From an uncultured Pseudomonadales bacterium (GTDB lineage Bacteria; Patescibacteriota; Microgenomatia; UBA1400; PJMF01), in NCBI GenBank assembly GCA_964620965.1, contig CAZUHV010000002.1, positions 48,863 to 112,862 on the forward strand: a stretch of DNA of 64,000 nt, written 5' to 3'. Shown piece after piece: positions 13,164-61,539 of this stretch. The translations under genes and the position numbers were made by a program. The notes below the pieces were generated by a model. The model worked only from the letters and a program-made list of their open reading frames with translations, did no database searches and was not told where the DNA came from. Position 1 is the first letter of the stretch. The number at the start of each line of letters is the position of its first letter.

Positions 13164-13904
13164 ATGGCAAAGAAATCAATAATTAAAAAACAACATATAA
13201 ATATTATTGTTGTCTTAGCAGTAATACTCACAGGTATAACAATATTTGGAAAGCAATACTTCTCAAAACTGCAATACAATACAAGATTCCATACTTGTAT
13301 TAATCAAGATGGCTCTACTTTTGAAACCACTGAACCATGTGAAAACTATTTACAAAAGGAAGAAACTTCAAATACTACCGTTAGCTTAGATCCTGATAAA
13401 CCAGATTTAGTTACCTTTCAAGCAGGATATTTTGCTGTAAAATATCCAAATAATTGGAATTATGTTGGTCATGATGGTGGTTTAGGAAATTTATTTGAAT
13501 ATCTACAAATAACTGATGTACAAGTCGAAGAAATGTATGATGGAAATCCAAATCTTCCGGCAATAATTTCCATTCAAGCAAATAAAAAAGGATTTTTCGG
13601 TGATTTTATTGGGAATGCTCATTATACGGGAAAATCTCTTGATGAATATATCAAAGATACTCTAAAAGAATTGGGGAACAATTACAAATCAAGAAGAGTT
13701 GATGGAACATCAGGCTGGTTAGTTGAAGAACCATCAGCTGATTGTTGTAAAATAAATATGTATCAATTAGTAATACATAATGACATATTCTATAATATTT
13801 CTTTAAATGTAAATGCATCAAATATGAAGGAGCTAGACGAAAAATCAAAAAAATATAGAAATGATTTTGATACAGTTCTTGATAACTTTAAATTTAATGA
13901 CTAG
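13164..13904 (+). CDS. signal-anchored (type II) surface protein, MAKKS family, with a variable C-terminal domain containing a CC pair
   Basis: MAKKSIIKKQHI + one TM helix, then a 200-aa hydrophilic domain. TATAAT sits 6 nt upstream of the ATG. Confidence 0.6.
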   Translation: MAKKSIIKKQHINIIVVLAVILTGITIFGKQYFSKLQYNTRFHTCINQDGSTFETTEPCENYLQKEETSNTTVSLDPDKPDLVTFQAGYFAVKYPNNWNYVGHDGGLGNLFEYLQITDVQVEEMYDGNPNLPAIISIQANKKGFFGDFIGNAHYTGKSLDEYIKDTLKELGNNYKSRRVDGTSGWLVEEPSADCCKINMYQLVIHNDIFYNISLNVNASNMKELDEKSKKYRNDFDTVLDNFKFND

Positions 13905-13954
13905 AGGTTAAGCATTTAATGAATTTATGACTTATTCTTGGTTACAATAGCTAT

Positions 13955-14647
13955 ATGGCAAAAAAATCAATAATGAAAAAACAAAATTTATTAGTAATTA
14001 TTTTTATTGCAATATTAGTTAGTACTTTAGCAATTTTTGTTAAACCAAAATCAGTTAAAAATGAAGTTTCGGTTGATCACACTACTGTTTCAGTTGATAA
14101 AGGAAAGACTTATGCAGAATTATCAATGGAAAAAGTTTCTCAGAATAAAGACGGAACTAGTACATATAATGGAGATTATTTTTCAACAACTTATCCAGAA
14201 AATTGGTATAAATGGTTTTTTGGTAGGGGAGTAAGTCTTGAAAACTTCCAAGTAAATTCGTTTTCTGAGGATAAAGTAGATGATATCTATGCAGAAGGTT
14301 CTTTCATAACTATAAATGTTGAAACTAAGGATTATAGACCCGTTTCAACATTAGAGGGGAAAATTGATTCTATAGAAGAATTAAAGAAGAATGCAGGTGA
14401 AAATACTAATGTAACATATAAAGTTGGACAATTTAAGTCAACACAAGCGGTTTACTCAGAAATTAAATCAAGTTCACATGGTTCAAAAAATCCAAGTTAT
14501 ATTAACACAATTTGGTTAATTAAAAGTGATATTGTCTATGAAATTGAATGGATATTAACTGCAAAAAACATGAACAATCTAGAAAATATAATATCTAGAG
14601 ATAAACTTGTTCATAATCAAATTGTTAATTCATTTGAATTTAAGTAG
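13955..14647 (+). CDS. signal-anchored (type II) surface protein, MAKKS family, with a divergent C-terminal domain
   Basis: MAKKSIMKKQNLLVIIFIAILVSTLAIFV TM anchor. TACAAT sits 6 nt upstream of the ATG. The C-terminal domain is unrelated in sequence to that of 13164. Confidence 0.6.
   Translation: MAKKSIMKKQNLLVIIFIAILVSTLAIFVKPKSVKNEVSVDHTTVSVDKGKTYAELSMEKVSQNKDGTSTYNGDYFSTTYPENWYKWFFGRGVSLENFQVNSFSEDKVDDIYAEGSFITINVETKDYRPVSTLEGKIDSIEELKKNAGENTNVTYKVGQFKSTQAVYSEIKSSSHGSKNPSYINTIWLIKSDIVYEIEWILTAKNMNNLENIISRDKLVHNQIVNSFEFK
13985..14069. repeat. 85-bp perfect direct repeat (copy 2) of 11819-11903
   Basis: See copy 1 at 11819-11903. Confidence 0.8.
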
Positions 14648-14687
14648 AGAGTCGAACATCAATTCCAATTTTGCTATAATCAGAAGT

Positions 14688-15041
14688 ATGAATATTTTGG
14701 ATTCAATTACATTTTTTTATCATCTTTATGGAGTACTTGTTTTGCTTTTTCTCTTCATATTTTTTGTTGTTTTAACATTTGTAGGGCTCAAGACAAAAAG
14801 AAGAGTAATATTTTTCCCTTCATTATTGATCGTAGTTATTTCCTTACTAATTATGTTTTTTGGTAGAAAATGTTGGTCGAGTGGGTGGGGTGGATTGTCA
14901 GGAATTGGTGATCAATGTACATGTAATGGCTTAGTTGTTAAATTTTATGTACCAAGCCCATTGTTATCGTATCAGTACACATGTTTTGGTATTGTTGAGG
15001 AGCCCGCTGAAATTTTTTCCTCAAGTAAATTTTACAGATAA
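14688..15041 (+). CDS. small two-TM membrane protein with a Cys-containing C-terminal tail
   Basis: ORF from the ATG at 14688 (MNILDS...). Extended -10 TGcTATAAT at 14672-14680, 7 nt upstream. Two hydrophobic helices, then CWSSGWGGLSGIGDQCTCNG...YTCFG. Confidence 0.35.
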   Translation: MNILDSITFFYHLYGVLVLLFLFIFFVVLTFVGLKTKRRVIFFPSLLIVVISLLIMFFGRKCWSSGWGGLSGIGDQCTCNGLVVKFYVPSPLLSYQYTCFGIVEEPAEIFSSSKFYR

Positions 15042-15076
15042 ACAAAGTATTACTTTATCTATAGTATAATGCATAT

Positions 15077-16174
15077 ATGAGAATCGGAATTGATGCTCGG
15101 TTATCAGGCGCTCAACACGCAGGAATCGGCAGATATACACAAAACTTAATTTTAGAATTGCTTAAAAAAAACAAAACCACAACGTATGTTTTGTTTTTCT
15201 ACACTCAAGAACAAGCAGAAGCAGTTTTGGGAACAGAAATTTCAAATAAAAAAGTTGAAATTGTTATTACACCCGTTCGTCATTACACAGTGACAGAACA
15301 ACTCAAGCTTCCAAAACTTTTCAAAGCACAAAAATTAGACTTACTGCATGTACCTCACTTTAATATTCCCATTTTTTATAAAGGTAAATTAATCATTACA
15401 ATTCACGACCTTTTATGGCACGAATACAAGGGTGGTTCTGTTACTACATTAAACCCGGTTATGTATTTCTTAAAATACTTGTTCTATAGATTAGTAACTA
15501 GAATTGCAGTTTACAAAGCAGAAAAAATTATTGTGCCTGCAGAAACTATTAAAAATACTGTTACTAAATTCTATCCAAAAACAGAAGAAAAAATTACAGT
15601 GACAAAAGAAGGTGCATATATTGTTGATCCCAAAAAACTTAAAAACTTACCTCAACTTAAAAACACACTTTTGTATGTTGGCTCACTCTATCCACATAAA
15701 AACTTAAAACTTATTTTGCAAGCATTACCATCACTCCCAAAATATAAACTTTTGATTGCCGGTTCAAGAAACGTCTTTCAAGATAAAGTGAGAGAGTATG
15801 TAAAATATAAACAAATTGAAGAACAAGTAGAATTTCTTGGATATGTCCCAGATGAAGACCTTGCAAAACTTTACCAACAAGTCACTGCACTTGTACAGCC
15901 ATCATTTTCCGAAGGATTTGGCCTAACTGGAGTAGAAGCAATGTCCTTTGGAACTTCTGTACTAGCTTCAGATATTCCTATTTTTAAAGAAATTTACCAA
16001 GATGTAGCCTTTTATTTCAGCCCTCATTCTATTGCATCTTTTATTCAAGCAGTTCATGCCCTTGAACAAAAATCAGATGCACAAAATAAAGAAGGGTTGC
16101 AACTTGCGAAAAACTATTCTTGGGAAAAAATGGCAGAGCAAACAATAGAGTTATATAAAGAAATTTTAAAATAA
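15077..16174 (+). CDS. glycosyltransferase family 4
   Basis: C-terminal EGFGLTGVEAMSFGTSVLASDIPIFKE motif, the GT4 signature. Confidence 0.75.
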   Translation: MRIGIDARLSGAQHAGIGRYTQNLILELLKKNKTTTYVLFFYTQEQAEAVLGTEISNKKVEIVITPVRHYTVTEQLKLPKLFKAQKLDLLHVPHFNIPIFYKGKLIITIHDLLWHEYKGGSVTTLNPVMYFLKYLFYRLVTRIAVYKAEKIIVPAETIKNTVTKFYPKTEEKITVTKEGAYIVDPKKLKNLPQLKNTLLYVGSLYPHKNLKLILQALPSLPKYKLLIAGSRNVFQDKVREYVKYKQIEEQVEFLGYVPDEDLAKLYQQVTALVQPSFSEGFGLTGVEAMSFGTSVLASDIPIFKEIYQDVAFYFSPHSIASFIQAVHALEQKSDAQNKEGLQLAKNYSWEKMAEQTIELYKEILK

Positions 16175-16178
16175 TTTC

Positions 16179-17396
16179 ATGCAACAAAAAAAACCAAAAA
16201 TTGCATTGGTATACGATAGAGTGAACACTCCGTTTGGAGGAGCTGAGATTGTTCTTACCGCCATTCATGAAATTTTTCCAGAGGCTCCAATTTATACTTC
16301 AGTTCATGATAAAAATAAAGCAAAGTGGGCAAAAAAAATCATAATAGTTCCATCTTTTCTGCAAAAAATACCATTTTTTAAAGATAAACACCAACTGCTT
16401 CTACCTTTCATGCCACTTGCTTTTGAATCACTAGATCTATCAGAGTATAACCTTGTTATTTCAATCACGAGCGCAGAGGCAAAAGGAATTCTTACAAAAC
16501 CAAATCAAAAACACATTTGCTATATGCTAACCCCCACAAGATATCTGTATTCTCATGAACAAGAGTATCTTGAAAGCAAAAGCTATCTAAAATTTCCAAT
16601 AATAAAACAACTTGCACAACTTATTTTTAAGTATGTGAAGGAATGGGATAAAACTGCTTGTTACCGTCCAGATACCATTATCCCTATTTCAAATCTCGTT
16701 TCAGATAGAATCAAAAAGTTCTACGATATAAAACCAGAAAAAGTTATATATCCACCTGTTCAAGTTAACTTAACCGAAGCTGAAATTTCAGATATACCAA
16801 CCCTAGAGAATACTCAAAAATTTTACTTAAGTGTCTCTAGGCTTGTAGACTATAAAAAAGTTGATCTGAGCATTCAGGCATGCATAAAAACACAAAAACC
16901 ACTTGTAGTGGTTGGAACAGGAGAATCTCAACAAAAACTGCACTCAATTGCTGGAACCCATGCATGTTTTATGCAAAAAAATGAAACTATCGAAGAGTTT
17001 TTACAACGAGGAACAATAGAAAACAAAAAAATACTATTCACCGGCAAATTAGCACAAAAGGATGTTTACAAACTTTTTAAAAATTGTGAAGCCCTACTCA
17101 TGCCGGGAGAAGAAGATTTTGGAATTACAGCACTTGAAGCAGGAATTTTTGGTAAACCTGTGATAGTATTTTATACAAGTGGTGTTTCTGAATTATTAAA
17201 AGATAGTTTGCACGCCATCCATATTAAAAAAGAAACTGTATCAGAAATGGTATATGCTCTTAGCAAACTCGATCAACTCAAGTTTAATGCAAAAGAACTG
17301 CGCTCTAATGCATTACAATACAGAGTAGACCTGTTTCAAAAAGAGTTTAAAAAAAGAATCGAACAAGAACTGAAAGGACAGTATGTCATATCTTGA
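16179..17396 (+). CDS. glycosyltransferase family 4
   Basis: C-terminal EEDFGITALEAGIFGKPVIV motif and GT-B architecture. Confidence 0.7.
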   Translation: MQQKKPKIALVYDRVNTPFGGAEIVLTAIHEIFPEAPIYTSVHDKNKAKWAKKIIIVPSFLQKIPFFKDKHQLLLPFMPLAFESLDLSEYNLVISITSAEAKGILTKPNQKHICYMLTPTRYLYSHEQEYLESKSYLKFPIIKQLAQLIFKYVKEWDKTACYRPDTIIPISNLVSDRIKKFYDIKPEKVIYPPVQVNLTEAEISDIPTLENTQKFYLSVSRLVDYKKVDLSIQACIKTQKPLVVVGTGESQQKLHSIAGTHACFMQKNETIEEFLQRGTIENKKILFTGKLAQKDVYKLFKNCEALLMPGEEDFGITALEAGIFGKPVIVFYTSGVSELLKDSLHAIHIKKETVSEMVYALSKLDQLKFNAKELRSNALQYRVDLFQKEFKKRIEQELKGQYVIS

Positions 17397-18486
17397 TCAC
17401 ACATTTGCAGTTATCTTAGCTGGAGGAGGTGGAACTAGACTCTGGCCAAAATCCAGAAACAAAACTCCAAAACAATTCCTCAAACTCATTGGAACAGAAA
17501 CAATGATGCAGATTGCAGCAAGCAGAATTACTAAACTCATTCCTTGGGAGCGAGTTATTGTTGTTACAAATGAACTATATAAAGATGAAGTTCATAATCA
17601 ACTTCCAGAAGTGCCTTTGCTAAATATCATCGCTGAACCTCAAAAAAAGGATACTGCATTAGCAATGCTTGTGGGAGCATTATACGCAAAATCATTAGAT
17701 CCAGATGCAGTTTGTGTAAACATGGCATCCGATCATATCCTTACCGATGAGCAAGAGTTTTCTAGAGTTATGAAACATGCAGCACAAACTGCGGCAGAAA
17801 ACGATTACCTCGTTACTGTTGGTATTTTTCCTACAAGACCAGCAACAGGGTTTGGATACATAAAAATTGGTGAAGATCTAAAAAAACTTGGTAACGGATT
17901 ATCCCTTTTTAAGGTTGAGAGCTTTACTGAAAAACCAAACGAGGCAACAGCAAGAGCATTTATTTCTACAGGAAAATATTTCTGGAACGCAAACATGTAT
18001 GTTTGGTCAAGTGCTGTACTACAAAGGGCATTTCAGACTCACATGCATTCTATGTATGAACAAACCAGTAAACTTGATGACCTAAAAGGTAAAGCTTTCC
18101 ATGAGGCTTTGCCAAAAATTTACGAAGCATCAGAATCAATTTCAGTTGACTATGCAATTTCAGAAAAAGCAACTAATCTTGTACTTATTCCTGGAGATTT
18201 TGGATGGGATGATGTTGGTGACTGGAAAGTTGTGTATGATCTTGAGAAAAAGGATCTTGCTGGAAATGTCGTTATCGGAGATGACCCTACAAGAAAAGTT
18301 CTGGCCATTTCTTCTCAAAATAACCTGATTCATGCAGATGGCAAACTAGTTGCAATGGTTGGCGTTAATGACATGATTGTCATTGACACCGGTGAAATTT
18401 TGATGATAATACCAAAGTCTCAAAGCCAAGATGTTAAAAAACTTGTCGAAAGACTCAAAGAAGAAAATCAGAAAGAATACTTGTAA
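17383..18486 (+). CDS. manC: mannose-1-phosphate guanylyltransferase (GDP-mannose pyrophosphorylase)
   Basis: FAVILAGGGGTRLWPKSRNKTPKQF nucleotidyltransferase P-loop. Length and ManC/CpsB-like architecture. Overlaps the upstream gene by 14 nt. Confidence 0.75.
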   Translation: MSYLDHTFAVILAGGGGTRLWPKSRNKTPKQFLKLIGTETMMQIAASRITKLIPWERVIVVTNELYKDEVHNQLPEVPLLNIIAEPQKKDTALAMLVGALYAKSLDPDAVCVNMASDHILTDEQEFSRVMKHAAQTAAENDYLVTVGIFPTRPATGFGYIKIGEDLKKLGNGLSLFKVESFTEKPNEATARAFISTGKYFWNANMYVWSSAVLQRAFQTHMHSMYEQTSKLDDLKGKAFHEALPKIYEASESISVDYAISEKATNLVLIPGDFGWDDVGDWKVVYDLEKKDLAGNVVIGDDPTRKVLAISSQNNLIHADGKLVAMVGVNDMIVIDTGEILMIIPKSQSQDVKKLVERLKEENQKEYL

Positions 18487-18487
18487 T

Positions 18488-19108
18488 ATGAACTATGCCC
18501 AACAAAAACGGATTCTTGATATAACAATAGCGCTTATGCTTATGATTGTCTTTTTGCCTATCTGGATAGTAGTCCCACTTATGATTTGGCTTGACTCTGG
18601 AACACCAATACTTTTTAAACATAAAAGAGTTGGTATTAATGGTAAAGAATTCTATCTGTATAAATTTAGGTCTATGATTCCAAATGCAGATGACATTTTA
18701 CACAAGCACAATAAAGAGTTGCTTAAAAAATTCAAACAAGGCGACTGGAAGCTTGAAAATGATCCAAGAATTACAAAACTAGGAAAAGCCCTTAGATCAC
18801 TTACTATTGATGAGTTTCCTCAACTCTACAATGTGATTCGAGGTGAAATGAGTATGGTTGGCCCAAGAGCGTATGTAAAAAAAGAGCTCGATGAGCAAAC
18901 ACAAAAATATCCAAAAACAAAAGAATATAGAGATCTTATTCTTTCAGTAAAACCAGGAATTACTGGACCTTGGCAAACTTCCGGAAGAAATGAGGTCCCA
19001 TTTGATGTCAGAGCCAAAATGGATGCTGAATATGCTCAATCTAATTCTATCTGGACCGATATAAAGATACTATTCAAAACACCTCAAGCAATGATTTCAA
19101 AGTGGTAA
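18488..19108 (+). CDS. polyprenyl-phosphate sugar-1-phosphate transferase (WbaP/WcaJ-type bacterial sugar transferase domain)
   Basis: From the ATG at 18488 (MNYAQQKRILDITIALMLMIVFLPIW...). One TM helix plus a conserved catalytic domain (KFRSM, PQLYNVIRGEMSMVGPR). Confidence 0.75.
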   Translation: MNYAQQKRILDITIALMLMIVFLPIWIVVPLMIWLDSGTPILFKHKRVGINGKEFYLYKFRSMIPNADDILHKHNKELLKKFKQGDWKLENDPRITKLGKALRSLTIDEFPQLYNVIRGEMSMVGPRAYVKKELDEQTQKYPKTKEYRDLILSVKPGITGPWQTSGRNEVPFDVRAKMDAEYAQSNSIWTDIKILFKTPQAMISKW

Positions 19109-19140
19109 CAACACCTACCTTTTTGGTATACTAACTAAAT

Positions 19141-21138
19141 ATGCTAGAAAAAGAGAACTTAGTTGATTCGTTTGAATATGGAATGGATGAAACCTCGCCA
19201 GAAAGTGTCGAAGATTCCTCTGTAAATATTTCACCTGAAAAAACAAACAAATTTAAGCAATTCATCTCTGGATTAAAACAAAAACCAGCCTTAGTTGTTG
19301 TTTTAGGTATCTTTTTACTACTCACACTTTTTACTACTATTGCAGGCGTTTATACCTATTCTGTAGTAAAAGAACTGCAAGCTCAGGCTCTTCCTCTAAA
19401 AGACAAAGTCCGTACAACATATGATCTGTTCAAAGCACAAAACCTACCAGAAGCTGAAAAAACACTCAATGAAATTGATACAGAATTCCAGGCTGTAAAG
19501 CAAACATATAGTAAATTAGGTTTTTACTCATATATTCCAATTGCAAAAAATTACTATGCAGACGGCCTACATGGACTAAACGCTGCACAAGCTGGTCTTT
19601 CTGCAGGTAAACGTTCGATAGCAGCAATTACGCCATATGCAGATGTTCTTGGGTTTTCTGGAGTTGAGTTTACTGGAGGAACAACTGAAGATCGACTTAA
19701 AGTTATACTAGAAACACTCGATAAAGTAGCACCAATCCTTGATGAAATCAGTGTAGATCTTGAAACAGTTAAAACTGAACTCGCCGCAATCAACCCACAA
19801 AGATACCCAGAGACAGTTAAAGATATACCAATTAGACAATATGTTGTAACAGCTCAAGAACTAAGCGCAGGAGCAGCAAATGCACTTGTTGAATACAGAC
19901 CTGTTATTGAAAAATTACCTAGAGTTGCAGGGGCTGGGGGTGAAACCCAAAAATACTTAATTCTCTTCCAAAATGATAATGAACTACGCCCAACAGGAGG
20001 ATTCCTTACTGCTTACGCGGTTATCAACATTACAGATGGTAAAGTTGAAGCTAGACAATCCGATGATATCTATGAATTAGATAAAAAGTTCACCAAAAAG
20101 ATTGCTATTCCAGAAGAATTGGGAAGATATTTAACAACAGAAAAATACTGGAACTTAAGAGACATGAATATTTCACCAGACTTTAAAGTTTCTATGGATA
20201 CATTCTATGAAAACTACCAAACCGTTCCTGGAGAACCAGAAGAAATTACTGGTATTATTGCCGTTGATACCCACTTCCTTACCAACCTCATGAATGTTCT
20301 TGGACCTGTTGAAGTACCAGGATATGGTACCTTTAGTGCACAAAACGATCCTCGTTGTGACTGTCCACAAATTATCTATGTCCTTTCTGAAATTATCACA
20401 AGACCAACTCCATACTTAAGAGAAGATAGAAAAGGTATCTTAGGCCCACTTATGAGAGCACTGCTTACAAAAGCATATGCTGCAGAAAAACAAACCTGGC
20501 CAGAACTTTTCAAAACTGGGTTTGAGAGCATCCAAAATAAACACGCTCAGTTCTATTTCTTTGACGAAGAAACTCAAAAGGCTGCCGAATTAGCTGCTGT
20601 TGCTGGAAGAATGAACCCACCTGAAAATGGAGAAGACTTCTTGGGAATCATCAATGCAAACTTAGCTGGAGCAAAATCAAATCTGTTTGTTACGTATGAG
20701 GTAAAGCAAGTTATAGCAGAAGCTCCTGTTGATGGCATGTTGACTAAAACAGTCGAAATTACCTATAAAAACACTCACAAAGCAGATAACTGTAACCTTG
20801 AAGCAGGCTTGCTCTGTTTGAACTCAACTTTAAAAGACTGGACGAGAATCTATGTGCCACAAGGATCTAAACTTGTCGAAGCACAAGGTTTCCTTGAAGA
20901 GGCAAAAGTGTATGATGAAAACGGATTCACTGTAATTGATGGATTCTTTACACTCGAACCTCTTGGATCTGCAAAACTTTCGTTTACCTACAAAGTGCCT
21001 TATGAAAATACTGCAGACTATAAAGTAAATATCTGGAAACAAGGTGGAATTGAGTCTTTCCAAAGTCTTATGGATGTTACTGGAGGCCAAGAAATCATTG
21101 AAGTCAAAAAAGATACTGCTTACGAAACGTTCTTCTAG
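19141..21138 (+). CDS. large membrane-anchored extracytoplasmic protein of unknown function (possibly DUF4012-like), last gene of the glycan locus
   Basis: 665 aa. An acidic N-terminus, one TM helix (ALVVVLGIFLLLTLFTTIAGVY), then a long hydrophilic domain. The family assignment is a guess from memory and not verified. Confidence 0.5.
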   Translation: MLEKENLVDSFEYGMDETSPESVEDSSVNISPEKTNKFKQFISGLKQKPALVVVLGIFLLLTLFTTIAGVYTYSVVKELQAQALPLKDKVRTTYDLFKAQNLPEAEKTLNEIDTEFQAVKQTYSKLGFYSYIPIAKNYYADGLHGLNAAQAGLSAGKRSIAAITPYADVLGFSGVEFTGGTTEDRLKVILETLDKVAPILDEISVDLETVKTELAAINPQRYPETVKDIPIRQYVVTAQELSAGAANALVEYRPVIEKLPRVAGAGGETQKYLILFQNDNELRPTGGFLTAYAVINITDGKVEARQSDDIYELDKKFTKKIAIPEELGRYLTTEKYWNLRDMNISPDFKVSMDTFYENYQTVPGEPEEITGIIAVDTHFLTNLMNVLGPVEVPGYGTFSAQNDPRCDCPQIIYVLSEIITRPTPYLREDRKGILGPLMRALLTKAYAAEKQTWPELFKTGFESIQNKHAQFYFFDEETQKAAELAAVAGRMNPPENGEDFLGIINANLAGAKSNLFVTYEVKQVIAEAPVDGMLTKTVEITYKNTHKADNCNLEAGLLCLNSTLKDWTRIYVPQGSKLVEAQGFLEEAKVYDENGFTVIDGFFTLEPLGSAKLSFTYKVPYENTADYKVNIWKQGGIESFQSLMDVTGGQEIIEVKKDTAYETFF

Positions 21139-21149
21139 ACTAAGTTGAT

Positions 21150-21548
21150 TTATCTAGTTGGATTAGCATTAATTTTTTCTTGAATTGCTAAACCTTCTTC
21201 TTGAGTCACACTAGTGTATGAACAAACAGTTCGTAAACCTCTGCCAGTAGTGCTATAAAAAACATACACAAACTGAGAGTCTGGTAAATCATGTTTTTCT
21301 ATTTTCATTTCATTACCTCTTCTTGTTTCTCTTGGAGCAGGGGGGAACACTATATGAAAACCACCATCACATGGAAAGAAAGCAGGATAGATTCCTTTAC
21401 GAATCATTTTTTCTAAACCACCAGGAGCACTCAACCGTCTCATGTACTCAGTTACAGGAGTTCTGTCTATTTTAGTAGCACCCTGCAAAAAAACAGACAA
21501 CTCTGTTGGAGTAAAAACTCTTGCTTTTGACTCTGTTGTAGTTTTCAT
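21150..21548 (-). CDS. small cytoplasmic protein of unknown function, tandem paralog 2
   Basis: 132 aa. Shares MKT(T/H)T...TEL, ...VFP(P/A)(A/V)P and a basic C-terminus with the adjacent gene. Confidence 0.5.
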   Translation of the reverse strand: MKTTTESKARVFTPTELSVFLQGATKIDRTPVTEYMRRLSAPGGLEKMIRKGIYPAFFPCDGGFHIVFPPAPRETRRGNEMKIEKHDLPDSQFVYVFYSTTGRGLRTVCSYTSVTQEEGLAIQEKINANPTR

Positions 21549-21558
21549 TACAACCTCC

Positions 21559-21972
21559 TTATTTTTGATATCTGCTGTTATGCTTTCTAACCGCAGCCTG
21601 TTTACCTGTTTGTAATAAACGAGTTTTCACTTTTTTTCTTAAATCATCAGCTCTCTCTTTGTCTAAAACAATAGAAACACAATGGTATAACTGGCCATCA
21701 ACTAATAATAAATATTCGCCATTCTTGTGTACAATTTTTCCGTTTTCACCAAAAGGAACTGCTGGGAACACAGCTCTAAAATTTTTACCTTCAGAAATAA
21801 TAACTGGAGCTACATCACGATCGACCATTTGATACACTCTTGCCCAGTTTCTAATCCAGTCTTCATAATCTTCTGGCTGGTTGTCATCAACAGTAAGAAT
21901 TTCTGCCGTTTCCAATATAAGTTCAGTTTGTGCACCTGTTTCTACTTGTGCTGTTCCTGTATGAGTTTTCAT
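21559..21972 (-). CDS. small cytoplasmic protein of unknown function, tandem paralog 1
   Basis: 137 aa. Paralogous to 21150-21548 (GKNFRAVFPAVP vs GGFHIVFPPAP). Confidence 0.5.
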   Translation of the reverse strand: MKTHTGTAQVETGAQTELILETAEILTVDDNQPEDYEDWIRNWARVYQMVDRDVAPVIISEGKNFRAVFPAVPFGENGKIVHKNGEYLLLVDGQLYHCVSIVLDKERADDLRKKVKTRLLQTGKQAAVRKHNSRYQK

Positions 21973-22080
21973 AAATCTAATCCTTTTTTTTGAACTATAT
22001 ATATACCTTTATAGCACATAATAATACAAAGAGTGTAGTTCGTCTATACTATTCATCAAAAACAATTTATAGTTACAGTT

Positions 22081-22626
22081 GTGAAAGACAACTCCTTTAC
22101 TACAACTGCAATTGTTTTGAAAAGAACCAATGTTGGTGAAACAGATAGAATTATTAACCTTCTGACACAAGAATATGGTAAGTTCACAGTGGTTGCAAAA
22201 GGGGTTAGAAAAATGAAATCTACCAAGAGAGCTTTTCTTGAACCAGGCAATATCATCAAAGCTTTCTGCATTAGAACAAAATCATTACCACTGCTAACAC
22301 AAGCTTCACTCATACAAGATTGCTCAGAAATGCAGCAAAACCTTGCAGCGTTTAGATCCCTCAATCAACTGCTTGAAATTTTTGAAAAGCTTTTTGTAGA
22401 AATTGAACTTGAACCAGAAATCTTTAATGCAATTTTGCTTTTACGAAAACAAGTTGTTGCCGGAAAAGCTCCTGCTAAATTCGTAAGAGACACCTTGAGT
22501 GAAATTATCGTACAAATGGGATTCCAGCACCCAGAAGAATCAAAATATAAAACAATTTCTGATTATGTCGCAGCACTTTCTGATAGCAAGATGAGAAGCT
22601 ATGAATTCCTACAAGTGAAAGTATGA
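22081..22626 (+). CDS. recO: DNA repair protein RecO (short form)
   Basis: AIVLKRTNVGETDRIINLLTQEYGKFTVVAKGVRK matches the RecO N-terminal OB-fold signature. GTG start. Confidence 0.65.
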   Translation: MKDNSFTTTAIVLKRTNVGETDRIINLLTQEYGKFTVVAKGVRKMKSTKRAFLEPGNIIKAFCIRTKSLPLLTQASLIQDCSEMQQNLAAFRSLNQLLEIFEKLFVEIELEPEIFNAILLLRKQVVAGKAPAKFVRDTLSEIIVQMGFQHPEESKYKTISDYVAALSDSKMRSYEFLQVKV

Positions 22627-23957
22627 AACAAAAATTAATTCTTTTTATACTGGCATATTTTAGATTTTTTGCAAAATTGCAATTGAAAAAAATTAACCCA
22701 ATAGTCATTGGAGTTACTGGAAGCGCTGGAAAAACAAGTACAAGAGATGCAATCTATGCTGTTTTGAAACCAGAATTTAAAGTAAAAGTAAGTTATAAAG
22801 CTAACTCAGAAAGTGGAATTCCTTTAAATATTCTTGGACTTACTCCAGTTAATTTTTCTCTGTTTGAATGGCTCAAATTAATAATTCTTTGCCCAATAAA
22901 ACTACTTACCAACTGGAAAAAATATGACATTTATCTTGTAGAAATGGGAATTGATAGCCCAAATAAACCAAAAAATATGGAGTATCTCTTAACCATTCTA
23001 AAACCAAACATTAGCATTATTTTAAATGCTGCTCCAATGCACTCAGAACCTTTTGATTACTTGGTAAATACTACAGACCCACAGAAGCGTGCAAAACAAA
23101 TTACCAAACTCATTGCTCAAGAAAAAGGTAGGATCGTTACAGACATTGATTCAAATCAAACTGCTATTGTGAATATAGATCAACAAGAACTTATAGAGTT
23201 ATTGCCAAATGTTTCAGCACAACTGTTGAGTTTTGGAAAAAGTGCAGATGCCGATATTGCAATCAAAAAATATGAAATAGATTCGTTAGGAACTCAGTTT
23301 TATTTTAATGTAGAGGAAAAAAAAGTAGTATTAGAGTTTAAAAATCAACTCTTGCCAGAACATTTTGGACATACTTTCGCTGCGGCAATCGCAGTAGGGT
23401 TTTCACTAAAAATACCTTTAGAAAAAATTAAAAATAACTTGGAAAATAATTTTAAACTACCTGCCGGCAGATCTAGTTTAATTGCAGGAATAAACAACAG
23501 TTTACTCATAGACAGCACGTATAATGCAAGCACAAAACCAATGTTAGATATGTTAGAACTGCTTAAAAAAATTCCAGGAAACAGAAAATTTGCACTTTTA
23601 GGAGATATGAGAGAAATGGGACAGGTTGCTCAAATTGAACATGAAACAGTTGCAAAAAAAGCTACAGAGGTCTGTGACCAAATTTTTCTAGTGGGACCAC
23701 AAATGAAAGAATTTGCGCTCCCAAAAATTCAAGAAACAAAAATACCTGTACAATGGTTTGAAACTGCCTATCAGGCTGGAAATTATATAAAAACAATTCT
23801 CAAAAAAGATGATGTGGTGTTATTTAAGGCGTCCCAAAATACACTGTTTTTGGAAACTGCAGTAGAACTGCTTATGGCACATCCCGATCAAGCAAAGATA
23901 CTGCTAGCTAGAAGAGGAGCTTTTTGGGATAAAAAACGAGCAGAGTATAAAAAATAA
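22623..23957 (+). CDS. murF: UDP-N-acetylmuramoyl-tripeptide--D-alanyl-D-alanine ligase
   Basis: Mur ligase P-loop IGVTGSAGKTSTRD. C-terminal DSTYNASTKPMLDMLELL...LGDMREMG is typical of MurF. Confidence 0.7.
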   Translation: MKQKLILFILAYFRFFAKLQLKKINPIVIGVTGSAGKTSTRDAIYAVLKPEFKVKVSYKANSESGIPLNILGLTPVNFSLFEWLKLIILCPIKLLTNWKKYDIYLVEMGIDSPNKPKNMEYLLTILKPNISIILNAAPMHSEPFDYLVNTTDPQKRAKQITKLIAQEKGRIVTDIDSNQTAIVNIDQQELIELLPNVSAQLLSFGKSADADIAIKKYEIDSLGTQFYFNVEEKKVVLEFKNQLLPEHFGHTFAAAIAVGFSLKIPLEKIKNNLENNFKLPAGRSSLIAGINNSLLIDSTYNASTKPMLDMLELLKKIPGNRKFALLGDMREMGQVAQIEHETVAKKATEVCDQIFLVGPQMKEFALPKIQETKIPVQWFETAYQAGNYIKTILKKDDVVLFKASQNTLFLETAVELLMAHPDQAKILLARRGAFWDKKRAEYKK

Positions 23958-23979
23958 CTCACTGTGCTATAATCAACCT

Positions 23980-24150
23980 ACAATTGAAGATTGTTTGAGT
24001 CCTTTGGCAAGGCAACCGTTTTAAACAAAAATGGTACAACAAACAAAATAAAGTGCGATTGCAAACATCTATTACAGGTAAAAAGCAACGAACTAGGGTG
24101 GAACCGCCCGGTAGGGTCCCTAACACAGTATGTGTTTGGGGCTTTTTTTA
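23980..24150 (+). promoter_or_regulatory. T-box riboswitch leader (glycine-specific by context) upstream of glyQS
   Basis: Extended -10 TGcTATAAT at 23964-23972. Conserved T-box sequence AACTAGGGTGGAACCGCC at 24091-24108. Terminator hairpin CCCTAACAC/GTGTTTGGG plus T7 at 24118-24149. GGC-A triplets in the stem-I region. Confidence 0.65.
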
Positions 24151-24317
24151 TTTCGGGTCCAACTTTTTTGAAAAAAAAGTTGTAGACACGAAATATGCAC
24201 AGCGCAGACTCTCCTTTTTTCAGAAAAAAGGAGTAAGTACATAAGATGCAACGCTATTGATGCAACACTATCCCAAACTCATACAAAACTTGGTAATATG
24301 TACATATAAAGGAAAAT

Positions 24318-25733
24318 ATGTCAGAACACACACAACCAACATTAGATGAAATTGTTAGCCTTTGTAAAAGAAGGGGGTTTGTCTATCCAACTTCCGCTAT
24401 TTATGGTGGGCTCGCCAATTCTTATGATTATGGTCCATTAGGAAGTCAACTACTTAAAAACATCAAGGATGCATGGTGGAAAGAATTTATAAATAAACGA
24501 ACTGATATGGTTGGCTTAGATTCTCAAATACTTTTACATCCAGAAACTTGGGTTGCATCTGGCCATGTTGGATCTTTTTCTGACCCACTCGTAGATGATC
24601 TTGTTACAAAAAAAAGATATAGAGCAGATCATCTCATTGAAGACTGGATTAAAAAACAAAAAAACGCTGGCTCTACAGAGTTTGATAATTTTGTGATTGA
24701 AGATCTTTCTATTTCTGAAATGGCTGAATTTATTAAAAGTCATAACATCACTAGCCCAGATGGTAATCCAATTAGTGAACCAAAAGCATTTAATCTTTTA
24801 TTTGAAACTGCAATTGGAACTGTTGCAGGCGACAAGGCAAAGGTATATCTTCGTGGTGAAACAGCACAAGGAATTTTCACTAACTTCAAGCAAATTCTTG
24901 ATACGAGTAGAGTGCAACTTCCATTTGGAGTTGGGCAAATGGGTAAGAGTTTTAGAAACGAAATTACAACGGGTCAGTTTATTTTCAGAACCCTTGAATT
25001 TGAACAAGCAGAGATTGAATACTTCTTCAATCCAAACCAAACCAACTGGGAAGAACTTATGCAGTCATGGAAAGACGCAATGGGGCATTTTGTCACTAAA
25101 ACTCTTGGAGTACGAGAAGAAAATGTCCGCTGGAGACGTCATTCAGATAGCGAAAGAAGCTTTTATAGTAAAGATACCTATGATCTAGATTATAATTTTT
25201 CATTTGGTTGGAAAGAACTTTGGGGAATTGCATATAGGACCGATTATGACCTAAAACAACACGTCAAACATTCTGGTGAAAAGCTTGAATATAGAGATCC
25301 ACATACAAATGAAGTCTTTACTCCACATGTTATCGAACCAGCACTTGGTATTGCTAGAGCCTTTTTAATGGTTATGACAGATGCATATTGGTTTGATGCA
25401 GAAAAAAATAGAACTGTTTTAAAACTAAAATCAAACTTAGCTCCATATAAAGTTGCAGTCTTTCCACTACTTAAAAATAAACCAGAACTTGTTACAAAAG
25501 CTCAATCTGTTTTCAGCCAACTTTCAGAAAAGTTTGAGACACTCTGGGATGATCGTGGCAATATTGGAAAACGCTATTTGTATCAAGATGAAATTGGAAC
25601 TCCATTTTGTGTAACCGTTGATTTTGAAACATTAGAAAATGATACTGTTACACTACGAGATAGAGATACAGCCGAGCAAATCAGAGTTTCAATCCAAGAT
25701 CTTGAAAGCCATATCTCATCCATGCTAGAGTAA
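24318..25733 (+). CDS. glyQS: glycine--tRNA ligase (alpha2 dimeric GlyQS type)
   Basis: FVYPTSAIYGGLANSYDYGPLGSQLLKNIKDAWW class II motif and the full-length GlyRS architecture. Confidence 0.9.
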   Translation: MSEHTQPTLDEIVSLCKRRGFVYPTSAIYGGLANSYDYGPLGSQLLKNIKDAWWKEFINKRTDMVGLDSQILLHPETWVASGHVGSFSDPLVDDLVTKKRYRADHLIEDWIKKQKNAGSTEFDNFVIEDLSISEMAEFIKSHNITSPDGNPISEPKAFNLLFETAIGTVAGDKAKVYLRGETAQGIFTNFKQILDTSRVQLPFGVGQMGKSFRNEITTGQFIFRTLEFEQAEIEYFFNPNQTNWEELMQSWKDAMGHFVTKTLGVREENVRWRRHSDSERSFYSKDTYDLDYNFSFGWKELWGIAYRTDYDLKQHVKHSGEKLEYRDPHTNEVFTPHVIEPALGIARAFLMVMTDAYWFDAEKNRTVLKLKSNLAPYKVAVFPLLKNKPELVTKAQSVFSQLSEKFETLWDDRGNIGKRYLYQDEIGTPFCVTVDFETLENDTVTLRDRDTAEQIRVSIQDLESHISSMLE

Positions 25734-25770
25734 TACAGCGTCCAAAAGTAGAAAGTATCGATAAGGATAT

Positions 25771-26565
25771 ATGAATAAAAAATTAGTACCAATTATCGGT
25801 GTAATCCTTCTTGTTCTTGTTGGAGGAATCTTCTTCCTAACAAGAGGAGAAAAAAGCTCTACACCACAAGAAGACACTTCACTTAAAAAAAGAAAAATCT
25901 CCGAACCAGTTAACGTCATTGATTTTGCAGAGAGGCCATATATTTTGGTCACTCCAAACACAGATGGCAGAAACCTAACAATCTCTGTTGATGCACTTAA
26001 AAAAGATGCAACAGAAGTTGAGTATGAACTTGAATATAAGTCTGGTTCATTACAACAAGGCGTTTTTGGTTCACTCAGTTTGTCTTCAATGCCAGCTTCA
26101 ACAAAACAGTTGATGGGTAGCTGTAGTGCTGGTGGTTCTTGTACCTATCATGAGGATGTTACAGGAGGAACTTTGGTCACCAGATTTATTGCAAGTGAAA
26201 ACTATGCATTAAAAACAGAGTGGAGATATATCGAAAATACAGAACAAGAAGATGAAATGGGATCTACAGATGCTAAATTCCAAATAACGTCCTCAAGCTT
26301 AAAAGGGGTAAAAATCGCTGTTATTGGAGATGCTTCTGGATTACCAGAAAAAGTAAAGGGTGATGTCGTTTCTGCACCTTATTACTTATCAACAGTCCCA
26401 GAAGTTTCTGGTAAAGCTGAACTCACAATGAGAGCTAATGAAGAAGGCGATCTCAAAGTCATGGGTTGGGACGGTTCAAAATGGCATGAATTCTCAGGAA
26501 CTGTAGATGGAAAATCTATCACAGCAGAAGTTGATCTTATGCAAGCATATATAGTTGTAAAATAA
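25771..26565 (+). CDS. membrane-anchored hypothetical protein
   Basis: N-terminal TM helix (LVPIIGVILLVLVGGIFFL) followed by a Ser/Thr/Gly-rich ectodomain. No recognisable domain. Confidence 0.5.
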   Translation: MNKKLVPIIGVILLVLVGGIFFLTRGEKSSTPQEDTSLKKRKISEPVNVIDFAERPYILVTPNTDGRNLTISVDALKKDATEVEYELEYKSGSLQQGVFGSLSLSSMPASTKQLMGSCSAGGSCTYHEDVTGGTLVTRFIASENYALKTEWRYIENTEQEDEMGSTDAKFQITSSSLKGVKIAVIGDASGLPEKVKGDVVSAPYYLSTVPEVSGKAELTMRANEEGDLKVMGWDGSKWHEFSGTVDGKSITAEVDLMQAYIVVK

Positions 26566-45731: not shown

Positions 45732-45802
45732 GTGGGCATGGTTCAGTGGTAGAACGCTTGCTTCCCAAGCAAGAGACGAGAGTTCGATTCTCTTTGCCCG
45801 CT
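45732..45802 (+). tRNA. tRNA-Gly (anticodon CCC)
   Basis: Manual fold. Acceptor GTGGGCA/TGCCCGC (one G-U), D arm GTTC-AGTGGTA-GAAC, anticodon arm CTTGC-TTCCCAA-GCAAG, T arm GAGAG-TTCGATT-CTCTT, discriminator T. No encoded CCA. Confidence 0.8.
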
Positions 45803-45817
45803 CATTTTTAAATAAAC

Positions 45818-60135: not shown

Positions 60136-60190
60136 TAAGTATACAGTACTAACACTTTTGAGTGCAAGTTAGATACTTGAGAGTAAACTG

Positions 60191-60263
60191 AGCCGAAGGT
60201 GGGATTCGAACCCACGACCTATGGTTTACGATACCAGTGCTCTACCAGCTGAGCTACTTCGGC
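60191..60263 (-). tRNA. tRNA-Thr (anticodon CGU)
   Basis: Manual fold of the reverse complement: GCCGAAG acceptor, D arm GCTC-AGCTGGTA-GAGC, anticodon loop ATCGTAA (27:43 C·U mismatch), T arm GTGGG-TTCGAAT-CCCAC, discriminator U. Confidence 0.75.
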
Positions 60264-61404: not shown

Positions 61405-61466
61405 GTTCCAAAAAAAACGCATCTCTGCGCCTTAATAAAAAATTAAATCCAAAATAAAACTTCTTG

Positions 61467-61539
61467 CGAGCCCGAACGGAATCGAACCGTCGATCTTCTC
61501 CGTGACAGGGAGACATGTTAACCGCTACACCACGGGCCC
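61467..61539 (-). tRNA. tRNA-Asp (anticodon GUC)
   Basis: Manual fold of the reverse complement: GGGCCCG acceptor, anticodon arm TCTCC-CTGTCAC-GGAGA, T arm GACGG-TTCGATT-CCGTT, discriminator G. Confidence 0.75.

Follow-up and report, generated by a model that had tools for sequence, protein, structure and literature searches.

A tandemly duplicated gene of a small Patescibacteria protein family, transcribed away from recO and possibly acting at the shared promoter

Two small minus-strand genes, here called A and B, lie next to each other in a stretch of 64,000 nucleotides of bacterial DNA (contig CAZUHV010000002.1; hereafter the window), between a surface-glycan locus that ends with a DUF4012 gene and the recombination-repair gene recO. 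Gene A (21559..21972), the promoter-proximal one, encodes a protein of 137 residues with an isoelectric point (pI) of 6.9, and gene B (21150..21548) a protein of 132 residues with a pI of 9.4, exactly where a preliminary description of this DNA had placed the two open reading frames (ORFs). As that description also held, B is convergent with its upstream neighbour, since the DUF4012 gene ends at 21138 and leaves 11 bp to the stop of B. On the other side, A and recO (22081..22626, plus strand; 181 residues, RecO_N at E=3.4e-19) diverge from a control region of 108 bp (21973..22080) that is conserved throughout the clade. The spacer between A and B, GGAGGTTGTA (21549..21558, minus strand), measures 10 bp and is identical in the four strains compared (4/4). 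In it, GGAGG, the Shine-Dalgarno sequence of B, comes right after the TAA of A and is followed by the ATG of B, an arrangement that implies co-transcription and coupled translation, as expected of a tightly coupled two-gene operon.

From 13164 to 26565 there are no further minus-strand genes when ORFs of at least 100 residues that are not nested in longer plus-strand ORFs are counted, and the GC content across the pair (34-38%) corresponds to native composition. Neither protein has a hydrophobic segment (maximal hydropathy over 19 residues on the Kyte-Doolittle scale, 1.1 for A and 0.8 for B), in line with the lack of a signal peptide or transmembrane helix proposed for them. They share a central motif at nearly the same position, KNFRAVFPAVP at residues 63-73 of A and GGFHIVFPPAP at residues 62-72 of B, the common pattern FxxVFPxxP falling at residues 65-73 and 64-72, respectively. 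Two other common features had been proposed and stood in part: both proteins begin with MKT.T, but the spacing of the '(V/A)xTxxEL' pattern differs between them, and the basic C-terminus is clear in A but not in B.

Near-identical orthologues of both genes were found in the same DUF4012/B/A/recO order on six independent metagenome contigs, among them an orthologue of A (P0001) that is 96% identical and has the same context. Selection tests were performed against strains 93-97% identical to the window (L001, L002, and L005). In the comparisons with L001 and L002, the ratio of nonsynonymous to synonymous divergence (dN/dS) was 0.14-0.41 for A (dN 0.016-0.025) and 0.17-0.23 for B (dN 0.037-0.040), against 0.00-0.13 (dN up to 0.011) for recO and the DUF4012, Mur ligase, and Bac_transf genes; for L005, division of the reported dN by dS gave ratios near 0.49 (A) and 0.27 (B). 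Purifying selection acts on both genes as proteins, with a constraint clearly weaker than that of their neighbours. Values below 0.5, together with the synteny in relatives and the Shine-Dalgarno sequences, indicate that A and B are real genes. Their orphan status and their weak constraint relative to neighbouring genes would also fit one or both ORFs being non-functional, either decaying or spurious, but we regard this as highly improbable, the ORFs being intact in all strains with dN/dS below 0.5, the Shine-Dalgarno sequence conserved, the fold of B predicted with confidence, and length and motifs kept across the protein family described below. The 3' end of B has a peculiarity of its own: its last six codons (NANPTR in the window, ATKLAQ in the strains compared) and the 11-bp gap behind them (21130-21167) are entirely different from L001, L002, and L005, and the dS of B reaches 0.18-0.22 against 0.03-0.13 in the flanks among strains otherwise 93-97% identical. 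The end of B and the gap to DUF4012 thus look like a local replacement or recombination patch.

A word-indexed homologue search with A and B returned near-identical sequences only, and entry to the wider family came via synteny. A search with the DUF4012 protein recovered five loci in metagenome-assembled genomes (MAGs), all Patescibacteria-like, the nearest being 'Patescibacteria group bacterium BroJett025' (L008; 76% identity), which carries a single minus-strand gene of 160 residues between DUF4012 and recO. In BLAST comparisons, the product of this single-copy gene aligns with B along its full length (32% identity, E=7e-20) and shows no similarity to A. A profile of B and the BroJett025 protein led to three further clusters, and a HMMER search of 1.84 billion representatives with a six-sequence profile gave 13 proteins at E<=1e-3, 12 of them genuine; protein P0016 (1,636 residues, HYR-like repeats) was rejected as a family member, its match to 'T.CSF.V' being a spurious low-complexity one. 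We call X the family defined here (alignment A4), as well as the single ancestral gene; B scores E=7e-55 against its profile. The resulting alignment of 15 sequences was too divergent for the design of search patterns, and scans of metagenome contigs with the family alignment and with A gave no match. Judged from these sequence searches, the X family is extremely small and confined to one Patescibacteria clade. Hypothetical families restricted to lineages of the Candidate Phyla Radiation (CPR) have been catalogued in protein-family surveys (PMC6744442). X is like them in being small, unannotated, limited to one clade, and placed among conserved genes, and differs from them in its far narrower range (the 12 genuine cluster representatives), its single genomic position, and its promoter cassette beside recO.

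The members of the family have 132-175 residues and a pI of 9.4-10.0, whereas A is neutral. Their signature reads P-x(4-9)-H-[IV]-[VI]-F-P-P ... [ST]-R-R ... Y-[VI]-x-H-[ST] ... G-[PS]-[KR]-[TS]-x-C-[SR]-[YF], followed by a C-terminal amphipathic helix, with the consensus P...G..H[IV]VFPPSP..SRR ... Y[VI]xH[ST]...GPKT.CSY. B has all signature blocks (HIVFPP...RR...YVFYS...RG..T.CSY), a tyrosine replacing the second histidine, and lacks the C-terminal extension of about 30 residues found in single-copy members. In A the signature is degenerate and detectable by profile only (FRAVFPAVP and YHC remain, the histidine having become arginine in FRAVFP and SRR being lost), and the long C-terminal helix and basic tail are retained. 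Besides the tyrosine of B, exceptions to the signature are a serine in place of the cysteine in P0006 and the lack of an aligned histidine in P0014. This variability of the His and Cys positions is evidence against a catalytic site, and X would accordingly have no catalytic centre and be a binder rather than an enzyme. A 2H-phosphoesterase or any other His/Cys active site was rejected, the motif spacing being wrong and the His/Cys residues not invariant.

The relationship between A and B had been proposed from their shared motifs, and it held at the level of profiles rather than of pairwise similarity, BLASTP giving no alignment between them. A Smith-Waterman comparison gave z=4.7, a score reached by 3 of 2000 shuffles, and hhalign of A with the six-sequence profile gave P=0.009. 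With the 15-sequence profile of the B family, hhalign aligned A over 107 columns in one register (probability 77%, P=2e-5), the C-terminal helix of A matching the family extension that is missing from B. A family hidden Markov model (HMM) built without A was then run against the 1,223 ORFs of at least 50 residues in the window and the retrieved loci; it placed A at E=1.3e-5, the next noise being at E>=1, and matched, besides the known members, the orthologues of A and one other ORF, discussed below. The sequence evidence thus supports A as a strongly degenerated duplicate of an X-family gene. Against this, the match of A to the family amounts to 21 bits and is non-significant database-wide, A was not recovered in the exhaustive profile search, and its AlphaFold2 model, computed from an alignment of two near-identical sequences, is of low confidence (predicted local distance difference test, pLDDT, 48). 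The silence of BLASTP, the absence of A from the exhaustive search, and the modest P-value obtained with six sequences could indicate that A is an unrelated orphan or de novo ORF lying by chance between B and the promoter. We consider such a coincidence quite unlikely, in view of the single-register alignment to the larger profile and of A being the unique match of the HMM among the local ORFs. The motif also stands at the same residue number, the models of A and B have the same order of five strands followed by a C-terminal helix at near-identical residue numbers, and an analogous diverged upstream copy exists in locus L028.

The distribution and neighbourhood of the family were also informative. 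In every member with readable context the X gene is divergent from recO, across 102-108 bp. The usual state is not the pair from which the preliminary description started but one gene of 150-175 residues, the state of nine out of ten distinct genomic contexts that were examined (9/10). This single gene lies between DUF4012 and recO in L008, L013-L020, L022, L024, and L026; in L027 it is again divergent from recO, with a short ORF on its other side. A convergent DUF4012 gene was recognised next to X in all contexts but two (L028 and L027), often with an overlap of 4 bp (L013 2036-2039, L015 2532-2535, L026 1821-1824); such overlapping stops leave no room for a terminator, so the convergent transcripts must overlap. 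In two outgroup MAGs (L011 and L012), whose RecO is about 44-56% identical to that of the window, DUF4012 is followed by recO on the same strand after 2-12 bp and there is no X gene (L011 7935-7948; L012 7935-7938), and in two further relatives a different plus-strand gene follows DUF4012. The records of L009, L011, and L012, titled 'Pseudomonadales bacterium', look like taxonomy mislabels: one isolate name contains 'PATE', and their DUF4012 proteins are 49-58% identical to that of the window, whose nearest relative is the Patescibacteria MAG mentioned above. Since the outgroups have DUF4012 directly before recO, the gene with its promoter cassette looks like an insertion, as previously suggested for the pair. 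The simplest history appears to be one insertion of gene and spacer, X with a cassette of about 107 bp having entered between the DUF4012 gene of the surface-glycan operon and recO, which would have parted recO from that operon and given it a new upstream region; after entry, X would have kept its fixed back-to-back position beside recO. What moves as one unit is the gene with the conserved spacer and recO, not the gene with the glycan locus.

The duplication is specific to the lineage of the window, where A, and not B, holds the ancestral promoter-proximal position. A second tandem pair was found in L028, in which the gene of P0015, the most divergent member, follows one of 147 residues; the latter is the other ORF matched by the family HMM, and it aligns with the family profile in hhalign (probability 94%, P=1e-7). 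In this upstream copy arginine replaces the signature histidine ('LLRVVFP'), as in A, and the downstream copy is canonical. The RecO of L028 is 82-84% identical to those of L008, L022, and L027 and 76% to that of the window. No specific similarity was detected between A and the L028 upstream copy (hhalign P=0.45), and we therefore treat the two duplications as independent or unresolvable; a tandem duplication whose upstream copy then decayed has probably happened twice. The far-side gene of the L028 pair (1389-2108) encodes an unannotated protein of 239 residues and not DUF4012, so that X and recO have stayed together although their surroundings are rearranged. In the lineage of the window, a tandem duplication of the single ancestral X produced the A-B operon, and the copies then diverged unevenly, B keeping the signature and losing the C-terminal helix extension, A keeping the extension and losing the signature His/Arg and its net positive charge. 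These complementary losses suggest that A and B may now form a hetero-oligomer descended from a homo-oligomer.

Proteins and spacer differ greatly in their rates of change. Over its first 119 residues RecO is 74-89% identical within the clade, and the DUF4012 proteins reach 74-80% identity with that of the window, against 22-72%, and typically about 30%, for X. The X-recO spacer has a mean pairwise identity of 67%, compared with 39% at the 4-fold degenerate sites of recO, which are saturated, and the nine-locus alignment (spacer and short coding flanks) has a mean column identity of 75%; between the window and L008 the spacer is 74% identical, equal to the flanking coding DNA. These sequence comparisons show the spacer to be under selection and the non-coding X-recO element to be far more constrained than the protein that it precedes.

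Several candidate control elements were recognised in this spacer. An 11-mer, GTATAGACGAA (22039..22049, minus strand), is invariant in all nine aligned loci (9/9) and occurs as one exact copy in the window; exactly one copy was found in each of the 19 loci that contain the spacer and none in loci without X. It covers the candidate -35 (TAGACG) of a putative sigma-70-type promoter of A-B (22018..22046, minus strand; TAGACG, 17 nt, TATTAT) and lies at about -32 to -42 from the start of recO; placed in this way over two back-to-back -35 regions, it is a candidate operator. The key -10 positions of the A-B promoter are also invariant in the nine-locus alignment. The promoter scan relied on consensus matching and gave no more sites than expected from shuffles, so that the promoter assignments draw on cross-genome conservation only. 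A second box, TATAGT (21994..21999, minus strand), lies in the leader of A as part of the conserved GGTATATATATAGT, and another TATAGT box (22068..22073, plus strand), a candidate -10 of recO, lies on the other side of the spacer. The two belong to an inverted repeat, AACTATATAT / ATTTATAGTT, whose arms are 62-66 nt apart in the window, L008, and L022, and the box in the A leader may be an alternative -10 or an operator half-site. In the recO-side box ACTATA is invariant in the nine loci; the box ends 7 nt before the GTG of recO, leaving no room for a Shine-Dalgarno sequence (22068-22083), and the ORF permits no earlier start codon; this layout is conserved in the nine loci. The transcript of recO is thus probably leaderless.

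We found no known family for these proteins, as first reported: no profile search put A or B in a known housekeeping family. Searched singly against Pfam, PHROGs, NCBIfam, PADLOC, and PDB sequences, A and B gave nothing, and with all 15 family members added, Pfam, NCBIfam, PHROGs, and PADLOC gave scattered single hits only (E>0.005); isolated N- and C-terminal halves were negative against the family libraries, as were PDB sequence searches with single sequences and profiles. In PADLOC-DB 2.0 there were no matches (0) for A and B and two isolated hits of the 15 members to unrelated models (E 0.009-0.016). A phage, plasmid, or other mobile origin was rejected: no relative turned up when 50,697 phage and 72,556 plasmid records were searched with tblastn or in a scan of IMG/VR, and the composition is native.

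As two small neighbours only 10 bp apart, with a coupled Shine-Dalgarno sequence, A and B resemble type II toxin-antitoxin operons, from which they differ in that their products are mutually paralogous, the ancestral state is single, and toxin or antitoxin domains are lacking; the toxin-antitoxin pair was rejected, the single-copy state predominating (9/10 contexts) and Pfam, PADLOC, and NCBIfam revealing no such domains. In size and two-gene arrangement, A and B also recall the HicB-like/UPF0150 antitoxins, and the hairpin 'G-x-[FY]-x-[IV]-x-F-P-x-x-P' of X resembles the N-terminal 'GGY.V.FPDLPG' of HicB. This reading was likewise rejected, given the lack of any Pfam match to HicB models (UPF0150 / PF15919 / PF05534) at E<=1 for A, B, and 13 further members and of any fold match to solved HicB/UPF0150 structures. 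No HicA lies beside the pair either, the neighbours being the DUF4012 gene and recO and the partner gene a paralogue. More generally, X might be a conflict-type protein, serving in defence, immunity, or a toxin-antitoxin-like function with A and B as a two-component pair; very low conservation relative to the neighbours, small size, repeated tandem duplication, the tight operon, and a local rise in the divergence of B between strains that are near-identical all agree with this. We nevertheless think it unlikely: the pair is not obligate, most contexts having one gene only, the fixed chromosomal position fits vertical inheritance and not a variable island, PADLOC, PHROG, and toxin-antitoxin domains found no match in the 15 members, relatives were missing from the phage, plasmid, and IMG/VR contigs searched, and dN/dS is well under 1.

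B was modelled confidently by AlphaFold2 (pLDDT 80.5, predicted template modelling score 0.72), with three helices in the N-terminal part, then five strands and a helix at the C-terminus, and a search with Foldseek found no fold match in the PDB (best E 0.5) or BFVD (best E 0.036, with a template modelling score of 0.2). On the basis of this model X is an undescribed basic alpha/beta protein family, new only as a protein family and fold; we claim no new kind of mechanism. In the first half of the model the elements come in the order H-b-H-H-b-b, which may correspond to the winged-helix topology H1-b1-H2-turn-H3-b2-wing-b3. Divergently transcribed local regulators of the winged-helix type are small basic proteins whose genes stand back-to-back with those they control, and between the two lies a conserved spacer of about 100 bp with an invariant element and an inverted repeat; the X locus resembles them in this layout. 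No winged-helix structure was retrieved and we therefore treat the order of elements as a lead only; Pfam and NCBIfam had no match to helix-turn-helix models, even for the isolated N-terminal halves at E<=10. Overlapping with a regulatory role is the unlikely reading in which X belongs to a known superfamily (for example as a winged-helix regulator, an eL38/SRP9-like small RNA-binding domain, or a PH-like alpha/beta domain) and has diverged too far for these searches to recognise it.

These observations led us to propose that X binds its own conserved divergent promoter and would thereby control both itself and recO, the 11-mer and the inverted boxes being a plausible target. The basic and aromatic blocks (KKxRxP, SRR, LRGPKT, and YVFHS) and the high pI suggest binding to nucleic acid; this binding, the oligomer state, and the regulatory target are what we infer from the features listed above. 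We are confident in the structural and evolutionary part of the proposal taken alone, and hold the whole, that is a duplicated X operon with a regulator role, to be slightly favoured. The functional part considered by itself, in which X is a non-enzymatic nucleic-acid-binding regulator at the shared promoter, is our preferred reading of function but tentative and somewhat doubtful. Four points weigh against it. The sequence and Foldseek searches brought up neither a helix-turn-helix nor any other family or fold that binds nucleic acid; the conservation of the spacer may reflect merely two promoters and a leader; the linkage to recO could be synteny inherited within one clade, with no functional tie; and a regulator acting on a highly conserved operator should keep its DNA-reading residues, whereas overall identity is 22-40%.

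X could instead assist RecO directly, binding single-stranded DNA, single-stranded DNA-binding protein (SSB), or RecO itself and aiding or modulating the short RecO of 181 residues, with A and B subfunctionalised. The divergent pairing with recO is indeed invariable despite changed flanks (a gene other than DUF4012 in L028, another gene after recO in L022), and such a role would also suit the basic character of X and the position of its conserved aromatic and basic residues, which fall on beta strands and loops. The outgroups, however, have an equally short RecO (178-181 residues) and no X, X evolves several-fold faster than RecO, and comparison of sequence and fold revealed no resemblance to RecR, RecF, SSB, or further known mediators, which makes this role improbable. 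A broader statement, to which we likewise give little credence, would see in X a young gene that brought a promoter cassette along, split recO from the glycan operon upstream, and now serves RecO-mediated repair in these reduced-genome CPR bacteria as a dedicated regulator or partner peculiar to the clade; its fold would be absent from solved structures, and its recurrent tandem duplication (in the window and L028) would be turning a homo-oligomer into an A/B hetero-oligomer.

The repair and regulatory repertoires of CPR bacteria are minimal and poorly understood, and orphan families are common in their genomes. Should X really regulate or aid recO, these bacteria would have in it a component of recombination repair that is specific to one clade and added to the usual machinery. 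Whatever its function, the locus offers an example of a taxonomically restricted gene that appears to have inserted with a promoter and rewired the transcription of a neighbour, of a protein under very weak constraint next to a non-coding element under strong constraint, and of repeated duplication with asymmetric degeneration.

Upstream of the unit, as had been described, lies the glycan locus, made of two GT4 genes, an NTP_transferase/ManC-type nucleotidyltransferase gene, a Bac_transf gene for an initiating transferase, and the DUF4012 gene, whose family has been discussed as envelope-associated in CPR and Gram-positive bacteria (PMC6744442). Downstream, recO, for which RecO_N is the sole domain detected in the short product, is followed by a Mur-ligase-family gene (22623-23957), the start of which overlaps the recO stop by 4 bp, suggesting translational coupling, and by a class-II aminoacyl-tRNA synthetase gene (HGTP_anticodon and tRNA-synt_2b domains), whose L024 homologue has a GlyRS-type insert domain. 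In two loci of the BroJett025-like lineage (L019 161-7285 and L020 3-3344), a giant Kelch-repeat protein of 2,374 residues replaces the Mur-ligase gene after recO. The scan of the window with Rfam and ARAGORN gave no Rfam match at the A/B locus and three tRNAs elsewhere as its sole matches: Gly-CCC (45732-45803), Thr-CGT (60190-60263), and Asp-GTC (61466-61539). Finally, three consecutive plus-strand ORFs of 246, 230, and 144 residues without a Pfam match (13164-15041) precede the glycosyltransferase cluster, and are 48-55% identical to L008 at the nucleotide level, with many gaps.

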